From Bacilli bacterium (GTDB lineage Bacteria; Bacillota_I; Bacilli_A; RF39; UBA660): a stretch of DNA of 64,000 nucleotides. The stretch spans positions 4,351 through 68,350 of the forward strand of contig JAEDES010000002.1 in NCBI GenBank assembly GCA_016293205.1, read 5' to 3'. This document shows, piece by piece, positions 29,053 through 61,404 of the stretch. The position numbers and the translations under genes are program-made. Position 1 is the stretch's first letter; every line of letters begins with the position of its first letter. A model generated the notes under the pieces. The model saw only the letters and a list, made by a program, of their open reading frames with translations, had not been told where the DNA came from and did no database searches.

Positions 29053-30588
29053 CTATTCTAAATTTAACTTTTCTTTGTCAATTCTTTGGAATAAAGCACT
29101 TGGTTGTCCTAATTCATAAGAATTATCAACTAAATAAGTATAATCTTTCTTATCATTATTTATTTGTTTTAAGATTTCACTACTTGTACTAGGCATAAAT
29201 GCTTCTAACATAGAACCACATACACGAATAGATTCTAATAAGTTATAAATAACTGTTTCTAATCTATCTAATTGAGCATCATCTTTAGCTAAAACCCAAG
29301 GAGTAGTTTCATCAATATATTTGTTTGATAATCTTAATACATTAAAGATTTCAGTCATAGCATCAGCTACTTGTAATGCTTCCATCTTAGCAGATACTTT
29401 TTCATCTAATTCTTTAATAGAATTAATAAATTTATCATCTAATTGAGCATCTACTACATTTTTATTAGTAACTTTTCCATCAAAGTATTTATTACCCATT
29501 GAAATAGTTCTTTGTACTAAATTTCCTAATACATTTGCAAGTTCACTATTAATCTTTTCAATTAATAAGTCATAAGTAATATTACCATCATTTGCAAATG
29601 GAATTTCATGTAATAAATAGAATCTAACTGCATCTACACCAAACTTATCTACTAAATCATCAGCATAAATAACATTTCCTTTAGATTTACTCATCTTGTC
29701 ACTACTTGTTAATAACCAAGGATGTCCAAATACCTTTTTAGGTAATTCTAGGTCTAATGACCATAAGAAACAAGGCCAATAAATAGTATGGAATCTAATA
29801 ATATCTTTACCAATTAAATGTAAATCAGCAGGCCATAACTTCTTGAATTCATCACTTTCATTATCAACATCATAACCAATATTAGTAATATAATTTGTTA
29901 AAGCATCTAACCAAACATAAACAACATGTTTTGAATCAAAATCTACAGGAATTCCCCATTTTAATGTAGTACGTGAAACACATAAATCTTGTAATCCTGG
30001 TTTAATAAAATTATTTAACATTTCATTCTTTCTAGATACTGGTTGAATAAAATCAGGGTGATCTTCAATATATTTTTCTAATTTTTCTTGATAATTACTT
30101 AATTTAAAGAAATATGCTTCTTCACTTTCTTCATGAACATCTCTACCACAATCAGGACATTTTCCATCCACTAATTGAGATTCAGTCCAGAATGATTCAC
30201 AAGGTGTACAATAAAGTCCTTTGTAAGTATCTTTATAGATATCTCCTTTGTCATACATCTTTTTAAATATATGTTGAACAACTTCTTTATGTTTTTTATC
30301 AGTAGTTCTTACAAAACGATCATAACTTGTATCCATTAAATCCCAGATACGTTTAATTTCTCCTGCTACATCATCAACAAATGCTTGTGGTTCTACTCCT
30401 GCAGCAGCAGCCTTTTCTTCAATTTTGATACCATGTTCATCTGTACCTGTTTGAAAATAAACATCATATCCTTTTAATCTTTTCCATCTAGCAATTGCAT
30501 CTGCTAAAACAATCTCATAAGTATTTCCAATATGAGGTTTACCAGAAGTATATGCAATAGCTGTTGAAATATAATACTTTTCTGCCAT
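29053..30588 (-). CDS. metG: Methionine--tRNA ligase (short form, no C-terminal tRNA-binding domain)
   Basis: 511 aa with HIGN (KPHIGNTYE), a CPDC zinc knuckle and KMSKS. Confidence 0.95.
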   Translation of the reverse strand: MAEKYYISTAIAYTSGKPHIGNTYEIVLADAIARWKRLKGYDVYFQTGTDEHGIKIEEKAAAAGVEPQAFVDDVAGEIKRIWDLMDTSYDRFVRTTDKKHKEVVQHIFKKMYDKGDIYKDTYKGLYCTPCESFWTESQLVDGKCPDCGRDVHEESEEAYFFKLSNYQEKLEKYIEDHPDFIQPVSRKNEMLNNFIKPGLQDLCVSRTTLKWGIPVDFDSKHVVYVWLDALTNYITNIGYDVDNESDEFKKLWPADLHLIGKDIIRFHTIYWPCFLWSLDLELPKKVFGHPWLLTSSDKMSKSKGNVIYADDLVDKFGVDAVRFYLLHEIPFANDGNITYDLLIEKINSELANVLGNLVQRTISMGNKYFDGKVTNKNVVDAQLDDKFINSIKELDEKVSAKMEALQVADAMTEIFNVLRLSNKYIDETTPWVLAKDDAQLDRLETVIYNLLESIRVCGSMLEAFMPSTSSEILKQINNDKKDYTYLVDNSYELGQPSALFQRIDKEKLNLE

Positions 30589-30612: not shown

Positions 30613-30864
30613 CAAAAAAAAATTATTATAAACATAAGGACGACAAAAATCGCGGTACCACCTTACTTTATAATAATTTGATATTATACACTCAAATAGT
30701 TAACGCCTATCTACGACTATACCTACATATCGATATAGTAGTTCAGAAGCCATATCTTATAACTTTCATTAATCCTCCACTTTCACCTTACAGAGGTCTC
30801 TACAAAAAACTACTGATTACAGACTCTTCATCATAACTTTTATAAACTCTAACTCGAGCTCTTG
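30613..30864 (-). promoter_or_regulatory. T-box riboswitch leader of metG
   Basis: The conserved T-box sequence GGTGGTACCGCG lies on the minus strand at 30662-30651. An extended -10 TGTTATAAT is at 30879-30871. The terminator stem AAATTATTATAAAGTAAGG...CCTTATGTTTATAATAATTT is followed by a U-run. A candidate AUG specifier at 30753-30751 is unverified. Confidence 0.8.
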
Positions 30865-40389: not shown

Positions 40390-42150
40390 CTATTCAAATT
40401 CTACAATATCACCAAATAGTTCTACTGCACTACTTACTATTATATCATCTTTTTCTACTTCTTCATAGATTTCTTCAGGTTCTTCAACAACTTCATAATG
40501 ATTACCATCTTTTAAAGAAGCTATATATTTATTCTTTTCAATTTCCCATTGTTCATCACTAATAATTGCTATTTTCTTATTAGAATTAGTAAGTTTATTA
40601 TAAACATATGTAATCTTATCAAGAATATTAAGATTTTGCTTAACAACAGAGTCATATTCATAACTTAAAATAAGACTATCTTCACTTACTGCACGAATTT
40701 TACCATCTAAAATAGCACATACAACGTATCCTACTTCTTGATCAAAAGTAAAATCCTCTAAAATACTCATATTATCAAGTTCAAACTTTAATAATTGTTT
40801 ATTAGCAAGAGCCATTGTATTATTGACACGTGCTTTCATAATATCATCAATATTTAATATAGAACCAGTTGATTCTTCTTCAGGCTCATAAGTATTAGAA
40901 ACAGCACTTATTGTTGGTTCTTCAACAACTTCCTTAGTAGTTTCAACAACCTTTTCAGAAACAACATTAACCACAGGCTCTTCTTTTACAATATCCTTTT
41001 CAACTATTTTTTCAACAACTTTTACTTCCTTATTTACAATAGAAGTCTCTTTATTTTCAACATTATTATTAACAACACCTACAAAATTATTTCCCGGGAA
41101 ATAATTTTTATTTAAAATATTATCATTTATAAACTTAATTAATAACATTTCAATAAAGATTTTTGGATTACTACTTCTTTTAATATCGAACATATTTTCG
41201 TTAATTAGGTTTACAAATTTTTGGACTAAATCAAGTGAAAAGTCTAAATTTTTATTAGAAATATAATAATCCACAAGTAAATTTCGAGAAAAATGCATCA
41301 ATTGAGACATAATTTGTATTAAATTTTTGCCTTCATTGTTAAATTTAGTGATTTTTACTAACACTTCTGATAAATTTCCACTAAAAATATCACTACAAAG
41401 CTCATACAAATTTTTAGATGTAATCATACCATTTAATTCAGCAAAAATTTCTAAAGTAATTTTCTCATCAGTATATGATCGTAATTTATCTAACATTCCT
41501 AATGAATCACGCATACCACCATCAGATGCTACAGCAATTTCCATTAAAACTTCATCATCTATGTCGATTTTTTCTTCTTTACATACATATTTTAATCTTT
41601 CAACAATCATTTCATCAGAAATTCGTCTAAAACTGAAGCATTGACAACGAGAAATGATAGTTTCAGGCACTTTTTGAGGGTCCGTAGTAGCTAAAATAAA
41701 AATAACATGCTCAGGTGGCTCCTCTAAAGTCTTTAAAAATGCATTAAAAGCACTTGTTGAAAGCATATGAACTTCATCGATAATATATACTTTATATTTT
41801 AATTCTGCAGGAACTAAAGAAACATTATTTCTTAATTCACGAATTTCTTCTACCCCATTATTTGATGCCGCATCAATTTCTATGATATCTACACATTCTT
41901 TTTCAAAAGAATGAAGACAATTTTTACATTTTCCGCAGGAATTTCCATCAATTGGCTCTAAACAGTTAGCTGCACGAGCAAAAATCTTCGAAACTGTTGT
42001 TTTTCCTGTACCTCTGGGCCCAAAAAACATATAAGCATGTGTTAAAGAATTATATTTAACAGAATTTAATAAGGTTTTTACTATTGTATTTTGACCTACT
42101 ACACTATCAAAATCTATAGGTCTATATTTTCTATATAAGGCTTGATACAT
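40390..42150 (-). CDS. dnaX: DNA polymerase III subunits gamma/tau
   Basis: 586 aa with GPRGTGKTT, a zinc module CGKCKNC, IIDEVHMLS and SRCQ. Confidence 0.95.
   Translation of the reverse strand: MYQALYRKYRPIDFDSVVGQNTIVKTLLNSVKYNSLTHAYMFFGPRGTGKTTVSKIFARAANCLEPIDGNSCGKCKNCLHSFEKECVDIIEIDAASNNGVEEIRELRNNVSLVPAELKYKVYIIDEVHMLSTSAFNAFLKTLEEPPEHVIFILATTDPQKVPETIISRCQCFSFRRISDEMIVERLKYVCKEEKIDIDDEVLMEIAVASDGGMRDSLGMLDKLRSYTDEKITLEIFAELNGMITSKNLYELCSDIFSGNLSEVLVKITKFNNEGKNLIQIMSQLMHFSRNLLVDYYISNKNLDFSLDLVQKFVNLINENMFDIKRSSNPKIFIEMLLIKFINDNILNKNYFPGNNFVGVVNNNVENKETSIVNKEVKVVEKIVEKDIVKEEPVVNVVSEKVVETTKEVVEEPTISAVSNTYEPEEESTGSILNIDDIMKARVNNTMALANKQLLKFELDNMSILEDFTFDQEVGYVVCAILDGKIRAVSEDSLILSYEYDSVVKQNLNILDKITYVYNKLTNSNKKIAIISDEQWEIEKNKYIASLKDGNHYEVVEEPEEIYEEVEKDDIIVSSAVELFGDIVEFE
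41089..41102. promoter_or_regulatory. Consensus Noc-binding site (NBS) inside dnaX
   Basis: ATTTCCCGGGAAAT exactly matches the 14-bp B. subtilis NBS palindrome. It encodes FPGN in dnaX. Confidence 0.55.
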
Positions 42151-42183: not shown

Positions 42184-42221
42184 AAAAAAAACTAAAACTT
42201 ATTTTTTTCTTCGTTTTAGTT
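42184..42221 (-). terminator. Possible terminator at the tadA 3' end
   Basis: 9-bp stem AACTAAAAC/GTTTTAGTT with a 14-nt loop and a U-run. The 5' arm lies in the tadA coding sequence. Confidence 0.4.
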
Positions 42222-42651
42222 CAAAAAATTCATTTAAAAGCGATTTAGACTCATTTTCAGCTAAATTATTAACAAAATTAACACTATTATTAGTAGAATC
42301 AACCTCAAAAATTGTGGAAATTAATTTAAAATTACCTTTATCAGAATTCTCACATGCGGAAAAAACATTTTTAATTCTAGCCTGTTTAATCGCACTAGCA
42401 CACATTGGGCAAGGATCTAAAGTTACATATAAATCACAATCCTCTAATCTCCAGTTTTTTAATTTTTTTGATGCTTTTTTTATCACATTTAATTCTGCAT
42501 GTTCTAAACAGCACATCTTTTTTTCCTTTTTATTGTGACTTTTAGCAAGAATTTCATCATTTTTCACCAAAATTGCCCCAATCGGAACTTCATCTTGTTT
42601 AAAAGCCTTCCTAGCCTCTTTAAAAGCTAAATCCATATATTTTAAATCCAT
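42199..42651 (-). CDS. tadA: tRNA-specific adenosine deaminase
   Basis: 150 aa with the CDA zinc motifs HAELNVI and PCPMCASA. Confidence 0.92.
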   Translation of the reverse strand: MDLKYMDLAFKEARKAFKQDEVPIGAILVKNDEILAKSHNKKEKKMCCLEHAELNVIKKASKKLKNWRLEDCDLYVTLDPCPMCASAIKQARIKNVFSACENSDKGNFKLISTIFEVDSTNNSVNFVNNLAENESKSLLNEFFELKRRKK

Positions 42652-42664
42652 AAATAATCACCTA

Positions 42665-42743
42665 CAAAAAAAGTGCACATAGATGGAGGCCCTTAAGGCT
42701 GCTACTTTCCAGTCCTGACCTGGTTCAAACACATCTATTGCAC
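42665..42743 (-). ncRNA. ffs: Signal recognition particle RNA, minimal (4.5S-like) form
   Basis: The minus strand reads GUGCAAUAGAUGUGUUUGAACCAGGUCAGGACUGGAAAGUAGCAGCCUUAAGGGCCUCCAUCUAUGUGCAC followed by a U-run. It contains the conserved domain IV core (CCAGGUCAGG..GGAA..AGCAGCC) and its ends pair into one long helix. Confidence 0.75.
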
Positions 42744-42749
42744 AAACTA

Positions 42750-42778
42750 ATTCTACTATTTTTGTGGATTTTTGTAAA
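42750..42778 (-). promoter_or_regulatory. Promoter of the SRP RNA gene
   Basis: On the minus strand: TTTACA (42778-42773), 17 nt spacer, TAGAAT (42755-42750). The predicted TSS is about 7 nt downstream, at the first G of the terminal helix. Confidence 0.5.
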
Positions 42779-42810
42779 CACATTTGTGAATTAAATCATT
42801 ACAAATTCAC

Positions 42811-42833
42811 TTTTCCACACTTTTTGTGGATTA
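42811..42833. promoter_or_regulatory. Head-to-head DnaA-box pair (module 1)
   Basis: TTTTCCACA-ctttt-TGTGGATTA; each box has 1 mismatch to TTATCCACA. Confidence 0.6.
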
Positions 42834-42834
42834 A

Positions 42835-42850
42835 TGTTTCACGTGAAACA
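42835..42850. promoter_or_regulatory. parS site 1 (ParB/Spo0J binding palindrome)
   Basis: TGTTTCACGTGAAACA matches the Firmicutes parS consensus TGTTNCACGTGAAACA exactly. It is part of a 24-bp perfect palindrome at 42831-42854. Confidence 0.8.
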
Positions 42851-42946
42851 TTAATTTTAAAGATTATACCCCTATTATTTTTCATTTAAACATTTTAATT
42901 TGTTTAAAATTCACTTTAATCAATAAAAAAATACTATTTATCAATT

Positions 42947-42969
42947 AAATTCACAAACTTTGTGGATTA
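42947..42969. promoter_or_regulatory. DnaA-box pair (module 2; upstream box degenerate)
   Basis: AAATTCACA-aactt-TGTGGATTA, with 3 and 1 mismatches respectively. Confidence 0.4.
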
Positions 42970-42978
42970 TTTTTTTAA

Positions 42979-42994
42979 TGTTTCACGTGAAACA
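42979..42994. promoter_or_regulatory. parS site 2
   Basis: TGTTTCACGTGAAACA, an exact consensus match, 9 nt after the DnaA box. Confidence 0.8.
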
Positions 42995-43013
42995 TAGTGA
43001 ATTATTAACAATT

Positions 43014-43040
43014 ATTGTTTAAAAATAAAGAAAATAAGCC
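43014..43040. repeat. AT-rich direct repeat, copy A
   Basis: ATTGTTTAAAAATAAagAAAATAAgcc matches copy B at 22 of 24 positions. Confidence 0.5.
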
Positions 43041-43085
43041 ATAAATTAATAAAAACATACATACCTATAGATTCATTTATAAATA

Positions 43086-43108
43086 TTATCAACCATTTTT
43101 GTGGAATA
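43086..43108. promoter_or_regulatory. Head-to-head DnaA-box pair (module 3)
   Basis: TTATCAACC-atttt-TGTGGAATA, with 2 and 1 mismatches respectively. Confidence 0.5.
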
Positions 43109-43109
43109 A

Positions 43110-43125
43110 TGTTTCACGTGGAACA
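43110..43125. promoter_or_regulatory. parS site 3 (one mismatch)
   Basis: TGTTTCACGTGGAACA, 15/16 to consensus, 1 nt after the DnaA box. Confidence 0.65.
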
Positions 43126-43156
43126 TAAAACTTAAAATCAAATGTTTGTTTATAAC

Positions 43157-43179
43157 TTATCAACAAGTTCTGTGGATAA
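43157..43179. promoter_or_regulatory. Head-to-head DnaA-box pair (module 4)
   Basis: TTATCAACA-agttc-TGTGGATAA; the first box has 1 mismatch and the second is perfect. Confidence 0.7.
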
Positions 43180-43180
43180 A

Positions 43181-43196
43181 TGTTTCACGTGAAACA
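43181..43196. promoter_or_regulatory. parS site 4
   Basis: TGTTTCACGTGAAACA, an exact consensus match, 1 nt after a perfect DnaA box. Confidence 0.8.
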
Positions 43197-43245
43197 TCTC
43201 TCAAAATAAATTTTAAACAACATTTGTTAATAAATTATTAAATAA

Positions 43246-43270
43246 ATTGTTTAAAAATAACCAAAATAAC
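43246..43270. repeat. AT-rich direct repeat, copy B
   Basis: ATTGTTTAAAAATAAccAAAATAAc, matching copy A at 43014-43040. Confidence 0.5.
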
Positions 43271-43371
43271 AAAAATGCATTTAAATGAGTTTAGATTGAT
43301 AATCACTCACCAAAATAAAAATAAATCGCTTAAAATGCATTTTCTATTTTTAAGTCGCTTTTGTATAAAAA

Positions 43372-43380
43372 TGTGGATAA
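43372..43380. promoter_or_regulatory. Perfect DnaA box
   Basis: TGTGGATAA, 12 nt upstream of NBS 1. Confidence 0.6.
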
Positions 43381-43392
43381 AAATATCAAATT

Positions 43393-43406
43393 ATTTCCCG
43401 GGAAAT
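43393..43406. promoter_or_regulatory. Noc-binding site (NBS) 1
   Basis: ATTTCCCGGGAAAT exact match, within the 18-bp palindrome TTATTTCCCGGGAAATAA. A half-site TATTTCCC follows about 10 nt downstream. Confidence 0.7.
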
Positions 43407-43469
43407 AAATTAAAAAATATTTCCCACTTGATATATCAACAAATTAATAAACAATCTGTTCAAAAAAAT

Positions 43470-43483
43470 ATTTCCTGGGAAAT
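43470..43483. promoter_or_regulatory. Noc-binding site (NBS) 2, one mismatch
   Basis: ATTTCCTGGGAAAT, 13/14 to consensus. Confidence 0.5.
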
Positions 43484-43606
43484 AAAATTAAATCAATTTA
43501 AATTAAAATAAAAAGACTAACCTATTACAAATTAATTAGATTTTATTTTATAAAAATATATATAAATTTCCACAATATATTAATTGCATGATGTTTACAT
43601 CAAAAT

Positions 43607-43620
43607 ATTTCCCGGGAAAT
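43607..43620. promoter_or_regulatory. Noc-binding site (NBS) 3
   Basis: ATTTCCCGGGAAAT exact match, followed 3 nt later by a perfect DnaA box. Confidence 0.7.
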
Positions 43621-43623
43621 AAT

Positions 43624-43632
43624 TTATCCACA
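43624..43632. promoter_or_regulatory. Perfect DnaA box
   Basis: TTATCCACA. Confidence 0.6.
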
Positions 43633-43660
43633 AAAAAAACATTATTTATCTCAAAATGTT

Positions 43661-43669
43661 TTTTCCACA
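43661..43669. promoter_or_regulatory. DnaA box (1 mismatch)
   Basis: TTTTCCACA. Confidence 0.4.
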
Positions 43670-43682
43670 AGACACTTTTTGA

Positions 43683-43712
43683 CAAAAAAAGAATGAGACT
43701 TTACTCATTCTT
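43683..43712 (-). terminator. Rho-independent terminator after gyrA
   Basis: Minus-strand hairpin AAGAATGAG-TAAAGT-CTCATTCTT followed by a U-run. Confidence 0.75.
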
Positions 43713-43737
43713 TACAATTTATAAACATTAATTTGAT

Positions 43738-46260
43738 TTATTCGTTGACATCTGATGCTTCTTCAATAGTTACTGCTTCCGTTGTACTTTCAGTAACTTC
43801 ACTAACATTTGTATTATCTTCGTTTACATTTTCAGATTCATTTTCATCTTCTTTAGCAACTATTGTAACTGTAGCTACCATTTGATCATCTTTAAGATTA
43901 ATTAATCTAACACCTTGAGTAGCACGTTTTAATGTAGATATTTGCTCTCCTGGCATTTTCATGATAATTCCACTATTTGTTACTACTATAACATCATAAT
44001 CATTACCTTCATCAACACATTTTAGAGCAGCCATCATACCATTCTTTTCAGTAACATTAAATGCTCTAACACCTTTGCTACCTCTATGAGTAAGTCTATA
44101 TTCATCAATAACTGTTTTCTTACCATATCCTTTTTCAGTAACAATAAGTATATACTGACCAGAATTAACAACTTCTGCACCAACAACGAAACTTCCATCT
44201 AAATCAATACCTTTAACTCCCGAACTACTACGTCCCATTGCTCTGATTTCATTTTCATCAAATCTAACCATACGACCATTACTTGCTCCAAGAGCTATTT
44301 CATTAGAACCATTTGTTTTTCTAACACTAATTAATTCATCATCATCTTTTAAAACAATAGCAATTTTTCCACCTTTTCTAATATTTTCAAACTCAGTAAT
44401 ATCAGTCTTTTTAACAATTCCACCACGAGTTGCAAACATTAAATATTTAGTAACTTGGTCGTCAGCATCAATTTCCACAATCGAACTTATGTTCTCGTTC
44501 TTCTCTAATGGAAGTAAATTAATGATTGGTAATCCCTTAGATTGTCTAGCAAATTCAGGAACTTCATAACCTTTCATTCTATAAACCCTACCTCTATTTG
44601 AGAAGAATAAAATATAATCATGAGTTCTCATTGAAATCATATGTTCTACAAAGTCTTCCTCATTTGTAGCCATACCTTTGACTCCAACTCCACCTCTATT
44701 TTGAGTTCTATAAGTATCACTTCTTAAACGTTTTATATAACCATTCTTAGTTAAAGTAATAATTACATCTTCATTTGGTATTAAAGACTCATCCTCGATA
44801 TATTCAATAGCTGTCATATCGATATTTGTACGTCTCTCATCACCATATTTATCTTTAATTTCTAATAATTCATTTTTAATTACTTCTAATATCTTAGAAT
44901 CACTAGCTAAAATGCCACGTAACTCGTCAATTAACTTTAACAAGTCATTTAGTTCATTTTCAATCTTTTCACGCTCTAAGCCAGTTAAACGACGTAATTT
45001 CATTTCTAGAATGGCATTTGCTTGAACTTCAGATAACTTAAAGTTATTCATTAATCCTTCTCTAGCTTCTTCATCAGACTTAGCAGCGCGAATTAATTTA
45101 ATAACAGCATCAATATTATCTAAGGCAATCTTTAAACCTTCTAAAATATGAACACGTTTTTCAGCAACATCTAAATCAAATTTAGTACGTCTAATAATAA
45201 CTTCTTTTTGATAATCAATATATTTAACAATAATTTCTTTTAAACCAAGTGTCTTTGGAACACCTTGATCTAGCATTAAGAATATAATTCCATATGTTGT
45301 TTGGAACGCTGTATGTTTATAAAGTTTATTTAAAACTACTTGTGCATTAGCATCCTTCTTTAATGTAATAGTAATTTTAATACCATCTTTTAAATCAGAA
45401 TGGTAATCAGAAATACCTTCAATTGTTTTATTATGAACAAGTTCAGCTACTTTATTCTTTAATTCTAAAGTATTAACACCATAAGGTACTTCATCAATAA
45501 TAATATATTGTTTTCCATTTTTTTCTTCTATTGTGGCCTTACTACGAATTGTAATAGAACCACGTCCAGTTTCATAAGCTTTTCTTATTCCACTGTTTCC
45601 TAGAATAATTGCGCCTGTTGGAAAATCAGGTCCTTTAATGTGTTGCATTAATTCATCTAATTCAATATCAGGATTATCAATATAAGCAACACATCCATCA
45701 ATAACTTCACCTAAATTATGGGGAGGAATGTTAGTAGCCATACCAACAGCAATACCAGTAGTTCCGTTAACTAAAATATTAGGAAATCTAGAAGGTAAAA
45801 CAGCAGGCTCTCTTTCACTCTCATCAAAGTTAGGACTAAAATCAACTGTATTTTTATTAATATTTCTAAGTAATTCAAGAGATATTTTTGATAAACGCGA
45901 CTCTGTATAACGCATTGCCGCAGCTCCATATCCTTCAATATTACCAAAGTTACCATGACCATCAACTAACATATATCTATATGAGAAGTCTTGCGCCATT
46001 CTAACCATTGCTTCATAAATAGATGAGTCACCATGTGGGTGATATTTACCCATAACGTCTCCGACTATTCTTGCACTCTTCTTATGAGGTTTATCAGGTG
46101 TATAACCAGATTCATACATTGAATATAAAATACGTCTATGAACAGGTTTTAAACCATCTCTTAAATCAGGAAGAGCACGAGCAACAATAACACTCATTGA
46201 ATACTCTAAAAACGAATCTTTTACTTCTTTAACAATACTATTTTGTTCTAATCTATCCAT
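43738..46260 (-). CDS. gyrA: DNA gyrase subunit A
   Basis: 840 aa with AMRYTE (active-site Tyr), a QRDR-like [13 protein letters not shown] and a beta-pinwheel CTD. Has an acidic C-terminal tail. Confidence 0.97.
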
Positions 46261-49458: not shown

Positions 49459-49905
49459 TTACTTATTTTTTCGCATTCTCATGATAAAGTCTAGTCTAGA
49501 TGCTCTAGAAAGCTGATTTTCGATAGTTCTAAACGAACAAGGTACTGTAATTTCCCTATTATTATCAAATAAAATCTTAGTACTTGTACTATCAATTTTT
49601 TCAATCTTTTTAACCCTTTTTAATGAAATCCATACACAATCAGCGGCAGCTGGTGATGTTGTTGGAAATACAATTAAATTATCACTATCTTCAACAATAA
49701 TAGGTACTTTATATTCTGCACCTAATATATCTCTAGCACTTTCTTTTCTACCATTATAAGTACTGCCAAAGTATTTACAACTATCCTCCATTATTTTAAA
49801 TGGAACTTCATCCACAATAAATTTCTCATCATCCTCATAAATGATGCTTTTTTCCTCTTCTCCTGGCACAATTGCTAATGTACCATTACTTATCTCATAT
49901 TTCAT
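49459..49905 (-). CDS. ComK-family protein (short form)
   Basis: 148 aa. YEISNGTLAIVP, DSCKYFGSTYNGRKESARDILGAEYKVPIIV and LIVFPTTSPAAADCVWISLKRVKKIEK parallel the B. subtilis ComK core. It lacks the C-terminal ~45 aa. Confidence 0.65.
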   Translation of the reverse strand: MKYEISNGTLAIVPGEEEKSIIYEDDEKFIVDEVPFKIMEDSCKYFGSTYNGRKESARDILGAEYKVPIIVEDSDNLIVFPTTSPAAADCVWISLKRVKKIEKIDSTSTKILFDNNREITVPCSFRTIENQLSRASRLDFIMRMRKNK

Positions 49906-51201: not shown

Positions 51202-51334
51202 ATAATATTCCTTCTTTCTTTTATAGTTTTATTATTATTACTGTGGAAATTGTGGAAAACATTATTTTTCTCTTATATAACAACGAATTCTTATCAACAA
51301 CCACTGTGGATAAAATGTTTTTCTTTCCACACTT
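51202..51334. other. oriC, dnaA-dnaN half (DnaA boxes plus trio-like repeat and AT-rich tract)
   Basis: DnaA boxes are TGTGGAAAT (51242-51250), TGTGGAAAA (51251-51259), TTATCAACA (51291-51299), TGTGGATAA (51305-51313, perfect) and CTTTCCACA (51323-51331). A (TTA)4 repeat at 51229-51240 abuts the tandem boxes. Confidence 0.75.
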
Positions 51335-52714
51335 TTACACAACCCCGATATCTTTTTTCAATTTTTCAATGATATTAGCTAAATCTTTATTAACTTTTAT
51401 CTCGTTTTCTATCTTTTCAACAGAATGCATTACTGTAGAATGGTCTTTACCTCCAAATTCTGTTCCTATCTTAGGAAAAGACTCATTTGTAAGACTTCTT
51501 ACTAAATACATAGCAATTTGTCTTGGAAATGAGATATTAGAGCTTCTCTTTTTACTTCTTATATCTTCAACAGATATTTGGAAGTATTCAGATACAATCT
51601 TTTGTATTCGATGAACATCATCTTTTTCTCCCATTCCTTTACTTATATAGTCTTTTAATGCTTCTATTGCTAAATCTAAAGTTATTTCAGAACCACCCAT
51701 TATAGCAGAATAAGCAATAACTCTAGTAATAGACCCTTCTAGATTTCTAACATCAGTATTGATATTAGAAGCTATATATTCTATAACATCTTCAGGAATT
51801 TCTTGTTCAAAATTGCCAGCAATTATCTTCTTTTTTATAATTTCTGTTCTAAGTGCAAAGTCTGGGGGAAAAATATTAACTGTTAATCCCCAACAAAACC
51901 TTGTTTTTAAACGGTCTTCAAATACTTTTAAGTCATCAGGAGACCTATCTGATGAAATAATAATTTGTTTATTATCATTATGTAAATAATTAAACGTATT
52001 AAAGAATTCGTTCTGAGTACCAGAAGCACCACTTAAGAATTGAATATCATCGATTATTAATACATCTATATTTCTATACTTATCTTTAAAGAAATCAATA
52101 AAACTTAAATTAGTACCTTTATCATCTTTCTTAGTCATACTAATAAAATCTTGTATAAATTGATCACTTGTAACGTATAAAACCTTTTTATTTGAATGTT
52201 CTACCATATAATTACCAATAGCATGCATCAAATGTGTCTTCCCTAACCCACTATTTCCATATATAAATAAAGGATTATACATATTTCCTGGATTCTCAGC
52301 TACAGAAATCGCAGCAGCATGTGCAAACTTATTAGTATTCCCGACTATAAAGTTATCAAACGTATATTTTGACATTAAATTTGAACGAAAAGGAATTGCT
52401 TTATTAATAGTATTATCAACAGAATTGTTAATAACTTCTCCACTACTCTCCTCTTCCTCCTCAACTATATCATCTTCCGTCCATAAAACTATATCATAAT
52501 TACTACCTGTAACATCTGATAAAACCTTAACAATTAAATCATAATAGTTATCCATAATGTGCTTCTTATGTATTGATAAAGGAACGATAATATAAGCATT
52601 TTCATTATGTAACTTATATAATTTTGTTTCTGAAAACCACGTATTAAATAAAACTGGAGACAGTTCGTCTTTGATTCGTTCTAAAAAGTTAGACCATAAA
52701 ACATCAACGTTCAT
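51335..52714 (-). CDS. dnaA: Chromosomal replication initiator protein DnaA
   Basis: AAA+ motifs GNSGLGKTHLMHAI and IIDDIQFL, and a domain IV ending in KDHSTVMHS. Start set at MNVDVLWSNF, 9 nt after the GGGGGAG RBS; the ORF track begins 6 codons earlier at GTG. Confidence 0.97.
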   Translation of the reverse strand: MNVDVLWSNFLERIKDELSPVLFNTWFSETKLYKLHNENAYIIVPLSIHKKHIMDNYYDLIVKVLSDVTGSNYDIVLWTEDDIVEEEEESSGEVINNSVDNTINKAIPFRSNLMSKYTFDNFIVGNTNKFAHAAAISVAENPGNMYNPLFIYGNSGLGKTHLMHAIGNYMVEHSNKKVLYVTSDQFIQDFISMTKKDDKGTNLSFIDFFKDKYRNIDVLIIDDIQFLSGASGTQNEFFNTFNYLHNDNKQIIISSDRSPDDLKVFEDRLKTRFCWGLTVNIFPPDFALRTEIIKKKIIAGNFEQEIPEDVIEYIASNINTDVRNLEGSITRVIAYSAIMGGSEITLDLAIEALKDYISKGMGEKDDVHRIQKIVSEYFQISVEDIRSKKRSSNISFPRQIAMYLVRSLTNESFPKIGTEFGGKDHSTVMHSVEKIENEIKVNKDLANIIEKLKKDIGVV

Positions 52715-52879
52715 TGTTACCATCTCCCCCACAAAGTAATTAAACTACAATTATTCTACCTTAAAAATAAAAAAATGAAAACAATTTTTATCAAAAAATT
52801 AATTTTCTTTTTCCTAGTAAAAATAAATGTCAATTTTCCATTCAGTGAACTACTATAAATCATTATAAAACAAAAAACA

Positions 52880-53075
52880 ACCCCTACTTTTCAACAATTT
52901 TATAGTGGATAAAATAATCACAAAAAGTGGATAAAAACTTATCAACAGGATATCAACAGAGTTTTCAACAACTCAAATCATTGATATATATAGTTAAAAC
53001 TAAGTTTTCCACATTTTCAACAATTTTTAATTTCACAAGTTCAAAAAAGTTCTCCACATACCTGTGGAAACTGTT
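52880..53075. other. oriC, rpmH-dnaA half (DnaA-box array)
   Basis: At least 10 DnaA-box-like 9-mers are present. Examples: AGTGGATAA at 52904 and 52926, TTATCAACA at 52939, TTTTCCACA at 53005, TTCTCCACA at 53050 and TGTGGAAAC at 53063. None is a perfect consensus match. Confidence 0.75.
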
Positions 53076-53112
53076 TAAAACTATTTAATATTTATAAAAA
53101 AATAACTTTTAA

Positions 53113-53142
53113 TTGACAAAAACACACTTTTCTTATTATAAT
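53113..53142 (+). promoter_or_regulatory. rpmH promoter
   Basis: TTGACA (53113-53118), 18 nt spacer, TATAAT (53137-53142). Confidence 0.55.
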
Positions 53143-53172
53143 AATGGAGATTTATGTCTGGAGGTGGAACAA

Positions 53173-53295
53173 ATGAAAAGAACATATCAACCAAATAATC
53201 GTAAAAAAGCAAAAAGATTAGGATTCTTTGCACGTAAAAAAACAAATATTTTAAATCGTCGTCGTCGTAAAGGACGTAAGAGTCTTTGCAAATAA
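53173..53295 (+). CDS. rpmH: 50S ribosomal protein L34
   Basis: MKRTYQPNNRKKAKRLGFFARKKTNILNRRRRKGRKSLCK, with a GGAGGTGG RBS upstream. The 20-codon N-terminal extension in the ORF track is spurious. Confidence 0.9.
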   Translation: MKRTYQPNNRKKAKRLGFFARKKTNILNRRRRKGRKSLCK

Positions 53296-53302
53296 TAAAA
53301 TT

Positions 53303-53327
53303 ACCGCTGCTAAAACAGTGGTTTTTT
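53303..53327 (+). terminator. Hairpin/attenuator after rpmH
   Basis: ACCGCTG-CTAAAA-CAGTGGT followed by a T6 run. Confidence 0.5.
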
Positions 53328-53355
53328 ACTCTTAATATAAAAAAAGGTGATATTA

Positions 53356-56656: not shown

Positions 56657-58519
56657 ATGAAATACGAAATTATAGTAGTAGGTGGAGGCCATGCAGGATG
56701 TGAAGCAGCTCTAGCCGGTGCAAGAAAAAATCACAAAACTCTACTAATTACAGGAAATATAAAAAATATTGCAGACATGCCATGTAATCCATCAATTGGT
56801 GGACCAGCTAAAGGTATCGTTGTAAGAGAAATAGATGCATTAGGTGGAGAAATGGGAAGAAATGCTGATAAAGGTGCTATCCAAATAAAAATGTTAAATA
56901 CTAAAAAAGGACCAGCAGTTCAAGCATTACGTGCTCAAGCAGATAAAATAACTTATCCGCAAGAAATGTTGAAAACTCTACAAGCGACAGAAAACCTTGA
57001 AATTAAAGAAGCAATGGTAGAAAAACTATTAGTAGAAAATAATAAAGTAGTAGGAGTAGAGTTAGCAAATGGAGAAACAATTAATGCTGATGCTGTAATT
57101 TTAACTACTGGAACATATTTAAGAAGTGCAATTTTAGTAGGAGATAATAAAACTCCAGGTGGACCACATGGTGAAAAAGAATCAAAACACTTAAGTACAC
57201 ATTTAAAAGAATTAGGATTTACAATACTAAGGCTAAAAACAGGAACACCTCAAAGAATTGATAAAAATTCAATAGATTATTCAAAAACATCACTAGAGCC
57301 AGGAGACCCTGAAATAAGAACATTCTCATTTGATAATAAAGCATATTATGAAATAGAAGACCAAGTACCATGTCATTTAATTTATACAACAGAAGAAACT
57401 CATAACATTATTAGAGAACATTTAAATGAATCAAGTATGTATGGTGGTTATGTTGAAGGAATAGGTCCAAGATATTGTCCATCAATTGAAGATAAAATTG
57501 TAAGATTTGGTGAAAAAGAAAGACATCAGTTATTCTTAGAACCAGAAAGTAGATATTATGATGATATTTATATTCAAGGTTTCTCAACAAGCATGCCACA
57601 TTATGTACAAGATCAAATGGTAAGAAGCTTACCAGGTCTAGAAAATGCCAAAATATTAAAATATGCTTATGCAATCGAATATGATGCAATCGATTCAAGA
57701 CAACTAAAACAATCATTGGAAACAAAATTAATAGAAAATTTATATACAGCAGGTCAAATTAATGGAACTAGTGGATACGAAGAAGCAGCAGGACAAGGAT
57801 TAATTGCAGGAATTAATGCTGCATTAAAATTAGAAGGAAAAGCACCATTAATCTTAAAAAGAAATGAATCATATATCGGTGTATTAATAGATGATTTAGT
57901 AACAAAAGGAGTAAAAGATCCTTATAGATTATTAACATCCCGTGCTGAATATAGATTATTATTAAGAAATGATAATGCTGATATAAGATTAAGAGACTAT
58001 GGATATCAAGTTGGATTAGTAGATGAAGAAAGATATCAAAAATTTACTAATAAAAAACAACAAATAAAAGAATTTACAGAGTTATTACAAACAACAAGAA
58101 TTACACCAAAGAAAGAAACTAATGAATACTTAGAATCGATAGAAACAACACCATTAAAAGATGGCATATCATTATATGAATTCTTAAAAAGACCAGAAGT
58201 AACATTGGAACATATAGCTCATTTTGTAGAAATACCAGAAGATAAAGAAGTAAAAGAACAAGTAGAAATAAATACTAAGTATGAAGGATATATAAAGAAA
58301 TCATTAAAAGAAGCAGAAAAGATGCTAGCTTTAGAAGAAAAACAAATTCCTTCAACAATCGATTATAGTAAAGTTCCTAATTTAGCAAGTGAAGCAAGAC
58401 AAAAATTAGCAGAAATTATGCCAACAACAATAGGTCAAGCATCAAGAATAAGTGGAGTAAATCCTGCGGATATATCAATCTTAATGGTATATTTAAGAAG
58501 AAATGGTGCTCATGAATAA
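56657..58519 (+). CDS. mnmG: tRNA uridine 5-carboxymethylaminomethyl modification enzyme MnmG
   Basis: FAD-binding [12 protein letters not shown] and the [13 protein letters not shown] motif. The ATG 8 nt after the AGGAAG RBS is preferred. Confidence 0.95.
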
Positions 58520-59147
58520 AGAATTATTTATTGAAGAGTTAAATAAATTAGGAATTAATGTAACAGAAGATCAATTAAGTAAATTAAATAAGTTTTATAA
58601 ATTACTAATTGAATGGAATGAAAAGATTAATCTAACAAGAATAACTGAAGAAAATGAAGTATACTTAAAGCACTTTTATGATAGTTTAACTATAAAAAAA
58701 GTAATTGATTTAAATGAAGTAGAAACATTATGTGACGTAGGTACAGGAGCAGGCTTTCCTGGTATAGTCTTAAAAATAATGTATCCTCATTTAAAAATAA
58801 CATTAGTAGATTCCCTACAAAAAAGAGTTAACTATTTAAATTCAATCATTAAAGATCTTGAATTAGAAGATATTCATGCTATTCATAGTAGAGGAGAAGA
58901 CTTTAAAGAAAAATTTGATGTCGTTACAGCAAGAGCTGTTGCTAACATTGAAAAACTAGTAACATACACAATGCATTTATTAAATAAAGATGGTCAATTA
59001 GTTGCAATGAAAGGTAATATTGAAGAAGAATTAACTGAATCAGTACAACAAAAACTATCTAAGAAATATCAAATAAAACAAATTGAAAAGTTCTTTCTAC
59101 CAATTGAAGAAAGTCATAGAAGTTTAGTTGTTTTAAAGAATAAATAA
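58503..59147 (+). CDS. rsmG: 16S rRNA (guanine527-N7)-methyltransferase
   Basis: 214 aa with [16 protein letters not shown] and the [13 protein letters not shown] motif. Confidence 0.92.
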
Positions 59148-59264: not shown

Positions 59265-60500
59265 ATGAATACAGATCCAAAAGATGAAGTAGTATACTTA
59301 TACTTAGATGACATAATACCAAATAGATTTCAACCAAGAGAAGTTTTTGATGAAAAAGCCTTAAAAGAACTTGCTGTATCAATTAAAGAACATGGTGTAA
59401 TCCAACCTATTATCGTAAGAAGTGTAAAAGACAAATACGAAATAATTGCTGGAGAACGTCGTTATAAAGCATCTGCTTTAGCAGGATTAACAAAAATACC
59501 AGCGATCATAAGAGACTTAGATGATAAAGAAAGTTCAAAAGTAGCCTTACTAGAAAATCTACAAAGAAAGAACTTAACACCTATCGAAGAAGCAAGAACA
59601 TATCAAAAAATACTGGAAATAGATGAAATGACTCAAGAAGATTTGGCAAAAACAATGGGAAAAAGCCAATCTGCAGTAGCTAATAAATTAAGATTATTAA
59701 CACTACCAGATGAAATTCAAGATTCTCTATTAAAAGAACAAATCTCAGAACGTCATGCAAGAGCATTATTAAATTTAACAGATGCTCCAAAACAAATTGA
59801 ATTATTAAAGAAAATAATTAATCAAAAAATGAGTGTTAGAGCTGTAGAAGAAGAAATAAAAAGATTAAACAACAAAGATGGAATAAGTAACATGGCTACT
59901 ACAAGTCAACAAATAACTGTTACTCCAACACCAATCAATCCAACACCATTATCTCCAACAATAATGCCAGTTGAAGAAATTGTTGAAGTAGAACCATATG
60001 AAGGTTATAAAGTAGTTCCACCGGCAGAAGGTAACACATTTATTAATTATGAAAATGCTGCCGATGTTGATGAAGAAGAAACAGAGGAATTAGATGAACC
60101 TATGAATTTTAATAATATAAATGAACCTGTTGATATTAATGCATTAAAGAAACAAGCTGAAGATATCAAGCCTCAAGAAACAAGCAATAACTTAGATAGT
60201 TTACTTAATATAAATGTTCCAGGACAAAAAGTATATAATTCATATGCGGAAAAAGCAATTAGTGAAGGATATGCACCTCAACAACCTAAAACAAAAGACT
60301 ATTTCAGCGCACCAGATTTCTCAACTATTGATCTACCAACAGTAGCAGAACCAGCTGTTTATACAGTAGACGATGCAATGAATAAAATTAGAGATTTAGT
60401 AAGAGATTTAGAGTCACATGGCATAAGCGTTCATAAAGATGAAATGAATTTTGAAAGAACTTTCCAAGTAATAATTAAAATTGATAAAAATGTTGAATAA
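59265..60500 (+). CDS. noc: Nucleoid occlusion protein Noc (ParB paralog) with a long internal low-complexity insertion
   Basis: 411 aa with a ParB N-domain (IIPNRFQPR, IIAGERR). The HTH region GKSQSAVANKLRLLTLP...ISERHARAL resembles B. subtilis Noc rather than Spo0J. It sits after rsmG and before soj-spo0J. Consensus NBS sites are present in the window. Confidence 0.75.
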   Translation: MNTDPKDEVVYLYLDDIIPNRFQPREVFDEKALKELAVSIKEHGVIQPIIVRSVKDKYEIIAGERRYKASALAGLTKIPAIIRDLDDKESSKVALLENLQRKNLTPIEEARTYQKILEIDEMTQEDLAKTMGKSQSAVANKLRLLTLPDEIQDSLLKEQISERHARALLNLTDAPKQIELLKKIINQKMSVRAVEEEIKRLNNKDGISNMATTSQQITVTPTPINPTPLSPTIMPVEEIVEVEPYEGYKVVPPAEGNTFINYENAADVDEEETEELDEPMNFNNINEPVDINALKKQAEDIKPQETSNNLDSLLNINVPGQKVYNSYAEKAISEGYAPQQPKTKDYFSAPDFSTIDLPTVAEPAVYTVDDAMNKIRDLVRDLESHGISVHKDEMNFERTFQVIIKIDKNVE

Positions 60501-60597: not shown

Positions 60598-61404
60598 ATG
60601 GGAAAGGTTATATCATTAGTAAATCAAAAAGGTGGAGTAGGAAAGACAACAACTAGTATTAATCTTTCAGCATCATTAGCAGTATTAGGAAAAAAAGTTT
60701 TATTAATAGATTTAGATCCTCAAGGTAATACAACTACTGGTGTTGGAATAAATAAAGGAGAGATTGATAAAAGTGTCTATGACGTTTTAATTGATGAATG
60801 CGCTATAACAGAAGCAATGGTTAAAACTAAATATAAAAATTTATATGTTTTACCAGCAACTATCAATTTAGCAGGAATCGACAGCGAATTAATGGAAAAA
60901 AGTCGCCAAGAAGATAACTTTGATAAAGGTAAACAATTAAAGAAACACTTAGAATCAATAAATGACAGTTTTGACTACATAATTATAGATTGTCCACCAT
61001 CTTTAGGAGTTATTACAATCAATGCTTTAACAGCATCAAATTCAGTAATAATTCCAGTACAATGTGAATTCTTCGCACTAGAAGGAATCACACAATTATT
61101 AAAAACAATAATGTTGGCTCAAAAAAAATTAAATCCAACTCTTGATATTGAAGGAGTATTATTAACAATGTTAGATTCCAGAACAAACCTAGGATTTGAA
61201 GTTGTTGATGATATTAGAAAATTCTTCAAAGAAAAAGTATACAACACAATAATTCCAAGATTAGTAAGATTAACAGAAGCTCCTTCACACGGAGAGCCAA
61301 TTATTGCATATGATCCAAAAAGTAGAGGATCTGAAGCATATCTTAATTTAGCGAAGGAAGTGATTGAACGCAATGGAAGAGAACAAAATGGAAGTAACCA
61401 GTAA
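60598..61404 (+). CDS. soj: Chromosome partitioning ATPase Soj/ParA
   Basis: 268 aa with the deviant Walker A NQKGGVGKTT and the IIIDCPPSLG motif. Confidence 0.93.
   Translation: MGKVISLVNQKGGVGKTTTSINLSASLAVLGKKVLLIDLDPQGNTTTGVGINKGEIDKSVYDVLIDECAITEAMVKTKYKNLYVLPATINLAGIDSELMEKSRQEDNFDKGKQLKKHLESINDSFDYIIIDCPPSLGVITINALTASNSVIIPVQCEFFALEGITQLLKTIMLAQKKLNPTLDIEGVLLTMLDSRTNLGFEVVDDIRKFFKEKVYNTIIPRLVRLTEAPSHGEPIIAYDPKSRGSEAYLNLAKEVIERNGREQNGSNQ

Follow-up and report, generated by a model that had tools for sequence, protein, structure and literature searches.

A conserved array of predicted parS and Noc-binding sites near the replication origin in a clade of uncultured gut bacteria

Noc, a paralog of the partition protein ParB, is known almost wholly from Bacillus subtilis and Staphylococcus aureus, in which its binding sites (NBS) are scattered and the protein tethers DNA to the membrane. 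An N-terminal amphipathic helix is needed by Noc for membrane binding and nucleoid occlusion. The NBS known so far are described as single sites in scattered positions, and 41 Noc-bound loci have been mapped in S. aureus, in which Noc also restrains DnaA-dependent initiation. In addition, the DnaA-box clusters (DBCs) of B. subtilis act jointly with Spo0J/Soj on initiation, and Caulobacter DnaA binds the parS region. The parS sites of B. subtilis are single sites, mostly inside genes.

In the window (the whole 64,000-nucleotide stretch analyzed here), a 990-bp gap (42748 to 43737) between gyrA and the SRP-RNA/tadA/dnaX genes contains an array of four parS sites, three NBS, and at least eight DnaA boxes. 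The array lies 9 to 10 kb from oriC and is bounded on its left by a small SRP RNA gene, just upstream of tadA-dnaX, and on its right by a terminator-like hairpin of gyrA. The features are as follows.

41089-41102, no strand: isolated exact NBS within the variable dnaX linker
42667-42747, minus strand: small SRP RNA gene (RF00169; 55.8 bits, gathering score 40)
42811-42850, no strand: parS unit 1, inverted DnaA-box pair TTTTCCACA-N5-TGTGGATTA (42811-42833) and, 1 nt on, parS (42835-42850)
42961-42994, no strand: parS unit 2, minus-strand DnaA box TAATCCACA (42961-42969) and parS (42979-42994)
43086-43125, no strand: parS unit 3, degenerate box pair TTATCAACC ... TGTGGAATA, then parS TGTTTCACGTGGAACA (43110-43125)
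43157-43196, no strand: parS unit 4, inverted box pair TTATCAACA-N5-TGTGGATAA (43157-43179) and, 1 nt on, parS TGTTTCACGTGAAACA (43181-43196)
43372-43380, minus strand: perfect DnaA box TGTGGATAA (TTATCCACA on the minus strand), 12 nt from NBS-1
43393-43406, no strand: NBS-1, exact ATTTCCCGGGAAAT
43418-43425, plus strand: NBS half-site TATTTCCC, read directly from the sequence
43470-43483, no strand: NBS-2, ATTTCCTGGGAAAT, 13/14
43566-43574, plus strand: ATTTCCACA, weak DnaA-box-like site (2 mismatches) that doubles as an NBS half-site
43607-43620, no strand: NBS-3, exact ATTTCCCGGGAAAT
43624-43632, plus strand: perfect DnaA box TTATCCACA, 3 nt past NBS-3
43661-43669, plus strand: DnaA box TTTTCCACA, 1 mismatch
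43688-43713, minus strand: intrinsic-terminator-like hairpin of gyrA
52733-53346, no strand: oriC region upstream of dnaA, with the GC-skew minimum, the gene-strand switch, and 5 DnaA boxes

The array itself was rejected as the true origin because both the minimum of the GC skew and the switch in gene strand fall at about 52.7 to 53.3 kb, next to dnaA; the skew is negative throughout 42 to 52 kb. The observation of the sequence-only reading that an NBS cluster lies beside a parS array and DnaA boxes near the origin is borne out, at 9 to 10 kb from the skew minimum, and all of its motif positions were recovered directly in the sequence. Its description of the DNA as noncoding needs correction for 42667 to 42747, where the SRP RNA gene lies. 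This gene, at the far edge, was all that a search for a hidden gene or RNA beneath the cluster turned up; a 78-amino-acid open reading frame (43275 to 43511) is AT rich, lacks a family match, and is probably spurious.

NBS-1 is embedded in an 18-bp palindrome, TTATTTCCCGGGAAATAA (43391 to 43408), and the three NBS are packed into 228 bp (43393 to 43620), an arrangement rightly described earlier as unlike the scattered sites of B. subtilis. Four NBS matches (≤2 mismatches) were found in the 64-kb window versus 0.12 expected, the fourth being the exact site in dnaX at 41089, and none of 100 shuffles gave four. The 990-bp gap holds eight DnaA boxes (≤1 mismatch), which form a significant noncoding cluster outside oriC (0.6 expected from the remaining window; Poisson P = 3e-7). 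These excesses exclude chance for both the NBS and the DnaA boxes. Three of the eight boxes are perfect, versus one in the two oriC spacers together. Within the array, boxes lie 1 nt from parS and 3 to 12 nt from NBS, and the box-pair design seen beside parS is found again in the dnaA-dnaN spacer (51291 to 51313). The first box of parS unit 3 is TTATCAACA in other strains. The parS sites start at 42835, 42979, 43110, and 43181, spanning 42835 to 43196 to the left of the NBS cluster, and no further parS (≤1 mismatch) occurs anywhere else in the 64-kb window. The sequence-only reading took the parS array as mere background to the NBS cluster, but the two form the halves of a single element. DnaA boxes also abut each parS, a point missing from that reading.

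The NBS have the 14-bp core ATTTCCCGGGAAAT and the 16-bp form TATTTCCCGGGAAATA, both identical to those of B. subtilis and S. aureus, and, as in these species, they are origin proximal and a Noc-type paralog is encoded beside soj-spo0J. Unlike the known sites, they are clustered within 230 bp beside parS, they are coamplified in tandem with parS in relatives (up to eight NBS in tandem), and their presumed binder has no membrane-targeting helix. The four parS sites match the consensus TGTTNCACGTGAAACA (≤1 mismatch) and, as in ParABS centromeres, lie within about 10 kb of oriC with an R..G ParB (Spo0J) and a ParA (Soj) nearby; the difference is that all four parS sites of the window share one noncoding array with the sites of a second paralog. 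Like the B. subtilis DBCs and the boxes of the Caulobacter parS region, the DnaA boxes are noncoding consensus boxes outside oriC that are tied to a partition locus. However, in contrast to the DBCs, they lie 1 to 4 nt from parS and NBS palindromes, form a 44-bp module in some species, and are optional in the clade.

Judged from its sequence, an entire clade of uncultured gut bacteria has conserved the array. Among related species, sequence downstream of gyrA was available for 24, and parS sites lie in the gyrA-tadA-dnaX interval of every one; 16 of them have NBS as well, and the other 8 have parS without NBS, which indicates that NBS coloading is not obligatory. No NBS were found near gyrA in 54 outgroup Bacillota gyrA loci. 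A gene-blind metagenome scan with the pattern NBS-N(8-38)-parS matched at least 120 contigs, and 76 of the 80 listed represent the same gyrA locus, with G+C contents of 19 to 35%. Strictly alternating parS/NBS tandem repeats occur in L003 (period, 64 bp), L005 (126 bp), L016 (82 bp), and L022 (about 72 bp). The 16-bp NBS form is 99 to 100% conserved over 298 sites of related loci while the spacers between sites diverge, which sustains the earlier identification of these sites as genuine NBS. The only palindromes with G or C that recur in the array spacers are the NBS and parS cores, and no third palindromic site type was found in the arrays without NBS. The locus is kept even in species whose GyrA is only about 61% identical over its full length. 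Outside the arrays, the NBS in dnaX occurs at the same place in at least four other species, but in a different reading frame, and further gene-embedded NBS are dispersed in relatives in homologs of recF and two other genes.

Between species, the sites change quickly in order and in copy number. Four strains share one layout; they differ in nine SNP columns, all of them outside the NBS and parS sites, a number too small for significance. A fourth NBS in L082, considered as a copy number difference between strains, is an inverted copy beside an N run and is probably a scaffolding artifact. Assemblies often break at the array region. A long Noc and an NBS-bearing array were seen in one genome in this window only. 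The literature covered, which is incomplete, contained no account of arrays combining parS and NBS, and none of a Noc lacking the membrane helix.

Candidate binders for both site types are encoded in the window, as follows.

59265-60500, plus strand: Noc-like ParB paralog, 411 amino acids, presumed NBS binder
60598-61404, plus strand: Soj/ParA ATPase
61364-62281, plus strand: Spo0J/ParB, presumed parS binder, with specificity residues R-M-A-G (R173...G201)

These genes follow rsmG (gidB; 58503 to 59147) in the order rsmG, noc-like, soj, and spo0J. The N terminus of Spo0J carries a ParA-interaction-type (LGRGL-type) peptide, KRRALGRGLEELF. The specificity residues of the Noc-like protein are Q-K-T-R, with Q173, K179, and R201 as in Noc, whereas position 184 is T (T, S, or A across the family) instead of the K of Noc. 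The experimentally derived rule for NBS specificity is Q173 and R201 together with lysine at either 179 or 184 (PMC7383237), so that one lysine is enough. The residues satisfy this rule, and the product of 59265 to 60500 is the likely NBS binder, in agreement with the sequence-only reading, which had proposed it as a plausible cognate protein. The CTP-binding N-terminal domain is present (Pfam ParB_N, 5e-35), and its motifs GERRYKAS and ENLQR do not vary within the family. It is followed by the helix-turn-helix (HTH), a disordered linker (residues 205 to 365, about 160 residues) containing the conserved short motifs PLxPT, KFINYGE, DLDSLLNI, and DYF, and a C-terminal dimerization-type domain. 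The protein thus shares with Noc (TIGR04285; 7nfu, 7ng0, 7ol9, and 6y93) the CTP-binding domain, the HTH, Q173/K179/R201, and the gene position, but it differs in its long disordered linker, in residue 184, and in having no amphipathic helix. It also scores 289.2 bits against the curated Noc profile TIGR04285, below the cutoff of 315, and matches profile positions 1 to 199 of 255.

The missing helix bears on the explanation of the cluster as ordinary nucleoid occlusion, in which it would be a dense patch of a scattered NBS set and the Noc-like protein would tether DNA to the membrane and block division. The dispersed gene-embedded NBS in dnaX and in the relatives, the canonical position of the noc-like gene, and the best solved-structure match, which is Geobacillus Noc (216 bits versus ≤176 for ParBs), are consistent with this explanation. 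However, neither the protein nor any of the 16 aligned members of its family has the N-terminal amphipathic helix. In the alignment with Noc of Geobacillus and B. subtilis, the match starts only at Noc residues 24 to 26, all 16 members start about 20 residues ahead of the PNRFQPR motif, and stop codons are found in frame immediately before the Noc-like start. The AlphaFold model of the C-terminal extension, which is not decisive at a mean pLDDT of 61, likewise has no apparent membrane-binding element, but only a disordered linker with a pair of short helices and then a C-terminal domain like that of ParB. Without the helix in the family, the membrane-tethering or occlusion patch envisaged in the sequence-only reading loses its known mechanism and is not borne out. 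In addition, the tandem coamplification of NBS with parS in other species points to a centromere link rather than chromosome-wide marking, and the score of the protein lies under the curated Noc cutoff. Ordinary occlusion is therefore considered unlikely.

The array may instead serve chiefly to control DnaA: it would be a box cluster in the manner of the DBCs of B. subtilis or datA of E. coli, and ParB and Noc clamps would gate its titration capacity; the sequence-only reading had offered this as its second alternative. The density of boxes, with more perfect ones than in the oriC spacers, their close spacing to parS and NBS, and the precedents in the B. subtilis DBCs, S. aureus Noc, and the Caulobacter parS region all favor a connection with DnaA, as do the relatives in part. 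NBS-DnaA box-parS modules were found in 19 of 107 loci, and a 44-bp form, TATTTCCCGGGAAATA-ATT-TTATCCACA-A-TGTTTCACGTGAAACA, is fixed in some species; L092 has five copies, one of them with an additional T in its spacer, and L151 has at least four. The junction of NBS-3 with its DnaA box is the NBS-box junction of the modules in L092 and L151. Over 71 arrays, 74 DnaA boxes were counted versus 33.6 expected. However, 39 of these arrays have no DnaA box at all, and the large parS/NBS arrays of L003, L005, and L016 contain zero or one box. Over all relatives, a box lies within 30 nt of the NBS center in 6 of 66 cases versus about 5% expected, which is about chance; the adjacency of NBS and DnaA boxes in relatives thus holds for the modules but not as an overall rate. 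The boxless arrays indicate that DnaA coupling cannot be the core function, and together with the chance-level proximity they make it look like a lineage-specific addition, here included, rather than the reason for the array. The conserved core consists of NBS and parS, and DnaA boxes are, on this comparison of sequences, a recurrent but optional third component and do not define the element. An array devoted chiefly to DnaA control is accordingly improbable.

Transcriptional control or insulation, in which clamps would act like KorB on the SRP-RNA/tadA/dnaX operon or on gyrA read-through, is very unlikely. The array does lie between the gyrA terminator and promoter-like sites of SRP RNA/tadA, and KorB, a ParB-family clamp, is described as silencing genes at long range. 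However, the array lies between tadA and dnaX in L016, L021, and L022 and is split around tadA in L007 and L013, and this varying position shows that it is not tied to one promoter. Shuffled sequence gives more promoter-like matches (15.2) than the region itself (9), and multicopy arrays of two site types would be unnecessary for regulation. Nonfunctional repeat expansion or chance in an AT-rich spacer, with which the rapid change of site order and copy number and the frequent assembly breaks would agree, is effectively refuted by conservation: only 0.12 NBS are expected in the window, the 16-bp motif is invariant between diverged spacers, the locus is kept down to about 61% GyrA identity, and the dnaX NBS is kept across different reading frames.

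The NBS cluster is probably one half, that of the Noc sites, of a composite centromere close to the origin. This centromere would coload two CTP-dependent clamps and, in this lineage, would have a DnaA coupling as well. The steps of this proposal, from binding through clamp loading and spreading to functional output, are those that we infer. The parS sites would load Spo0J/ParB and the NBS would load the Noc-like paralog; the ParB CTP-binding fold is retained in each protein, so that each is expected to nucleate at its sites, close into clamps, and spread. The two kinds of clamp would slide over the surrounding 10 kb or so, oriC included. Selection appears to act on both kinds of loading site sharing one place, by which two paralogous nucleoprotein complexes would be placed on one origin domain. 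Here and in some relatives, DnaA boxes are wedged 1 to 4 nt from parS and NBS, and at this distance ParB/Noc and DnaA occupancy should affect each other, which would tie the assembly of partition complexes to the free initiator available. Interleaved loading sites could, however, be roadblocks to each other's clamps, which would count against a benefit of interleaving. The below-cutoff Noc score of the paralog, its T at position 184, the eight related species without NBS in the array, and the pairing of a long Noc with an NBS-bearing array in this window alone also weigh against the proposal.

A second and more tentative proposal, with less than even odds, concerns the Noc lineage itself. The helix-less Noc of this clade may act at the centromere and not as a membrane-tethering occlusion factor, being loaded beside ParB from interleaved sites into a two-clamp partition or organizing complex. 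The conserved motifs in its linker may recruit further partners, and DnaA may sit between the two loading sites in some species. A helix-less centromeric Noc could be the ancestral state, soon after duplication from ParB and before the helix was gained.

A large clade thus departs from the picture drawn from B. subtilis and S. aureus, with NBS and parS coamplified at one origin-proximal locus, a helix-less Noc, and sometimes wedged DnaA boxes. It offers a natural system for asking what role Noc has before or without membrane binding, whether two orthogonal CTP clamps can share one centromere, and how partition complexes connect to the replication initiator. For in vitro tests of competition or cooperation, the 44-bp NBS-DnaA box-parS module provides a ready substrate.

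The chromosome origin region lies within the window (GC content, 27%), and the nearest relatives found are uncultured animal or human gut MAGs labelled "Bacilli bacterium" or "Tenericutes bacterium," one of them a closed 1.5-Mb genome. On the − strand, dnaA is followed in order by dnaN, a ComK-like gene, recF, and gyrB, and on the + strand to its right runs a series of genes up to rsmG, a ParB-family gene, soj, spo0J, and an MscS-type channel gene. The minimum of the cumulative GC skew, at ~53 kb, coincides with a switch in gene orientation, so oriC adjoins dnaA. The cluster of Noc-binding sites (NBS) is located 9 to 10 kb from oriC on one replication arm. The ComK-family protein (148 aa; PF06338, 8e-44) is encoded at 49459-49905 (− strand) between dnaN and recF, and an origin operon is an unusual place for such a gene in a reduced genome. 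Upstream of a 511-aa ORF (29053-30588), a T-box leader was also found at 30633-30843 (− strand; RF00230, 95.7 bits).

Features of the window around the NBS cluster and the origin
40390-42150, − strand, dnaX
41089-41102, exact NBS within dnaX
42199-42651, − strand, tadA
42667-42747, SRP RNA gene
42835, 42979, 43110, and 43181, consensus parS sites
43372, − strand, perfect DnaA box flanking the NBS cluster
43393, exact NBS (NBS-1)
43470, NBS with one mismatch (NBS-2)
43607, exact NBS (NBS-3)
43624, + strand, perfect DnaA box flanking the NBS cluster
43661, DnaA box with one mismatch
43688-43713, gyrA terminator hairpin
43738-46260, − strand, gyrA, followed by the gap and then tadA
51335-52732, − strand, dnaA
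59265-60500, + strand, ParB-family gene of 411 codons

Every motif that the sequence-only reading had listed in the gap was recovered at its coordinate. The NBS consensus ATTTCCCGGGAAAT has four matches in the window, compared with 0.12 expected, and none of 100 shuffles gave four. Eight DnaA boxes with at most one mismatch lie in the gap, where the density in the rest of the window would predict 0.6 (P = 3e-7). Given the SRP RNA gene and the gyrA terminator hairpin, the truly noncoding array spans 42748-43737. A 78-aa ORF over NBS-1 and NBS-2 (43275-43511, + strand), which one metagenome assembly (L083) annotates as a gene, is probably spurious, since it is very AT-rich and has no family match.

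The NBS cluster is one half of a larger element, the other half being the four parS sites immediately to its left, besides which no parS with up to one mismatch occurs within the 64 kb. An inverted DnaA-box pair precedes three of the four parS sites and ends 1 to 2 nt from them, as in TTATCAACA-N5-TGTGGATAA-A-TGTTTCACGTGAAACA (43157-43196), and the parS at 42979 has a single DnaA box 9 nt away. The pair TTATCAACA-N5-TGTGGATAA lies directly beside parS at 43157-43179 and 42811-42833 and is also present in the dnaA-dnaN spacer (51291-51313); thus, the array boxes are of the type used at this organism's origin.

The conservation of the array was analyzed in gyrA loci fetched with 10-kb flanks, one genome per species. 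Of these, 26 come from the low-GC clade of the window and have GyrA identities of 61 to 86%; two of the 26 have almost no downstream sequence. In the gyrA-tadA-dnaX interval, parS is present in all 24 species with downstream sequence and is accompanied by NBS in 16. In four species, parS and NBS alternate strictly in tandem repeats.

Species with alternating parS/NBS repeats
L003, 8 parS and 8 NBS, 64-bp period
L005 (closed genome), 6 parS and 6 NBS, 126-bp period
L016, 8 parS and 7 NBS, 82-bp period
L022, 4 parS and 5 NBS, ~72-bp period

The only recurring 12-mer palindromes containing G or C in these spacers are the NBS core and two parS-core variants. The parS variant TGTTCCACGTGGAACA (core TTCCACGTGGAA) replaces TGTTTCACGTGAAACA throughout the arrays of L015 and L019 and is also found in L007, L013, and L018. 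No NBS was found within 10 kb of gyrA in 54 outgroup loci from Bacillaceae, Paenibacillus, Staphylococcus, Erysipelotrichaceae, and others. Three of these loci (L028, L036, and L040; Erysipelotrichaceae, [Eubacterium] hominis) have two or three parS sites ~1.7 to 5.2 kb downstream of gyrA and no NBS, and therefore the gyrA-distal location of parS may predate the addition of NBS.

Public metagenome contigs were further scanned for the bare pattern NBS-N(8-38)-parS, with genes ignored, which returned at least 120 matching stretches. Among the 80 matches listed, all with GC contents of 19 to 35%, 76 have homologs of gyrA, tadA, dnaX, ebfC, or recR beside the sites, and the remaining 4 are short fragments with none of them, so among these matches, an NBS beside parS nearly always marks the present locus in the low-GC clade. 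Together, the 80 listed metagenome loci, the 26 species loci, and the window contain 298 NBS, 261 of which are exact, and the flanking T and A of the 16-bp site are 99 to 100% conserved. Contigs from ten metagenome samples encode an identical TadA and have one site layout wherever they reach. In the spacer, four strains are distinguished by nine SNP columns; none of these lies within NBS or parS, but with only ~1 expected there by chance, their absence is uninformative. Many contigs of this species end inside the array, which indicates that it breaks assemblies. In L082, a seeming fourth NBS ~746 nt upstream of tadA abuts a run of N and duplicates the NBS-1 region in inverted orientation; it is probably a scaffolding artifact.

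DnaA boxes were counted in the 71 arrays with flanking sequence sufficient for a background estimate. In total, 74 boxes were found against 33.6 expected, with none in 39 arrays and most of the excess in seven, including the window's, which shows that the boxes are recurrent but optional. In the window and the 26 species loci, a box lies within 30 nt of the center of 16 of 105 parS sites (~5% expected) and of 6 of 66 NBS, the latter near chance (~5% expected). The adjacency of NBS and DnaA boxes noticed in the window is therefore near chance in relatives overall and is found in some species as fused modules. L092 and L151, whose GyrA proteins are 80 to 81% identical to the window's, carry near-identical modules (L092, 209-1766; L151, 2526-4030), TATTTCCCGGGAAATA-ATT-TTATCCACA-A-TGTTTCACGTGAAACA, in which an NBS is followed after 3 to 4 nt by a perfect DnaA box and after 1 nt by parS. 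L092 has five copies, one of which contains an additional T in its spacer, and L151 has at least four; stretches of divergent, AT-rich DNA of a few hundred bases separate them. Solitary NBS lie between these modules, and a degenerate box-like TTTTGCACA follows each of them. Of 107 loci, 19 have NBS-box-parS triplets, and AATTTTATCCACAA is the commonest filler between NBS and parS (11 times). In the window, NBS-3 and its box (TATTTCCCGGGAAATA-AT-TTATCCACA) correspond to the NBS-box part of these modules and the parS units to the box-parS part. An earlier suggestion that the cluster is a second layer of ParB-family control over DnaA boxes is plausible for this species, but it cannot account for the array as a whole.

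Single NBS also occur in relatives within homologs of recF and two other window genes and are common to subgroups of species. The dnaX site of the window, which sits in a variable linker at a position common to five species, recurs ~1,030 to 1,155 nt into dnaX of L009 (14281), L018 (4703), L025 (14429), and L010 (14701). It is translated as IISREI in L009, L018, and L025 and as IISQEI in L010, where it has one mismatch, but as YFPGNN in the window. Because the reading frame differs between species, the DNA sequence is conserved and not the peptide. This indicates DNA-level selection on the dispersed sites, and the Noc-like protein described below probably keeps scattered sites besides the array.

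The 411-aa Noc-like protein contains ParB_N and ParB HTH domains, and its best matches among solved structures are the Noc proteins of Geobacillus (216 bits) and Bacillus subtilis (192 bits), with ParBs scoring at most 176 bits. Four positions have been shown experimentally to set parS/NBS specificity, with Q173 reading adenine 1 and R201 cytosine 6 of NBS, given a lysine at 179, 184, or both (PMC7383237). These positions are Q, K, T, and R in the 411-aa protein versus Q, K, K, and R in Noc; the protein therefore satisfies the published rule and, as the sequence-only reading proposed from its HTH, is likely to bind NBS. In the Spo0J paralog, the residues are R...G, which ParB is described as conserving absolutely, and its N terminus carries a KRRALGRGLEELF peptide.

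The Noc-like protein cannot be classed as a canonical Noc, given its score, N terminus, and linker. Its score of 289 bits with the NCBIfam Noc model falls short of the 315-bit cutoff, and the alignment covers only profile positions 1 to 199 of 255. It starts ~20 residues ahead of the PNRFQPR motif and lacks the stretch that in Noc forms the amphipathic membrane-targeting helix and helix alpha-2. The start codon has a good ribosome-binding site and is directly preceded by in-frame stop codons, and all 16 aligned family members (60 to 92% identity to the window's protein) share the same start. The N-terminal helix mediates membrane association, and a Noc variant without it is impaired in nucleoid occlusion (PMC8429893). 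The reading of the cluster as a membrane-tethering or occlusion patch thus loses its known mechanism. The DNA-binding domain is followed by a ~160-residue linker with predicted disorder (pLDDT below 50) and then by a C-terminal domain modeled as a helix plus a beta-hairpin. The linker (residues 205 to 365) contains motifs conserved across the family (PLxPT, VPP, KFINYGE, DLDSLLNI, and DYF) that look like docking motifs for partners. Almost all of the best 120 of at least 8,000 scored candidates from the homology search are 400 to 470 residues long.

Neither parS/NBS arrays, NBS-DnaA box-parS modules, nor a Noc family without the membrane helix was found in the incomplete literature library searched. 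The parts of the array are all of known kinds, and what is new is their combination and the protein variant. Sites for two different ParB-family specificities are combined in a conserved, origin-proximal, noncoding array, a paralog encoded nearby has the matching specificity residues and no membrane helix, and DnaA boxes are integrated into the arrays of some lineages, including the window's. DnaA-box clusters of B. subtilis work jointly with Spo0J/Soj (PMC3245932), and DnaA is reported to bind the parS region in Caulobacter (Mera et al. 2014, as reviewed in PMC6399470). At the array, Spo0J and the Noc-like protein would both be loaded onto the origin domain as CTP clamps, and DnaA binding in this species may be coupled to their occupancy, since its boxes lie 1 to 4 nt from the palindromes.
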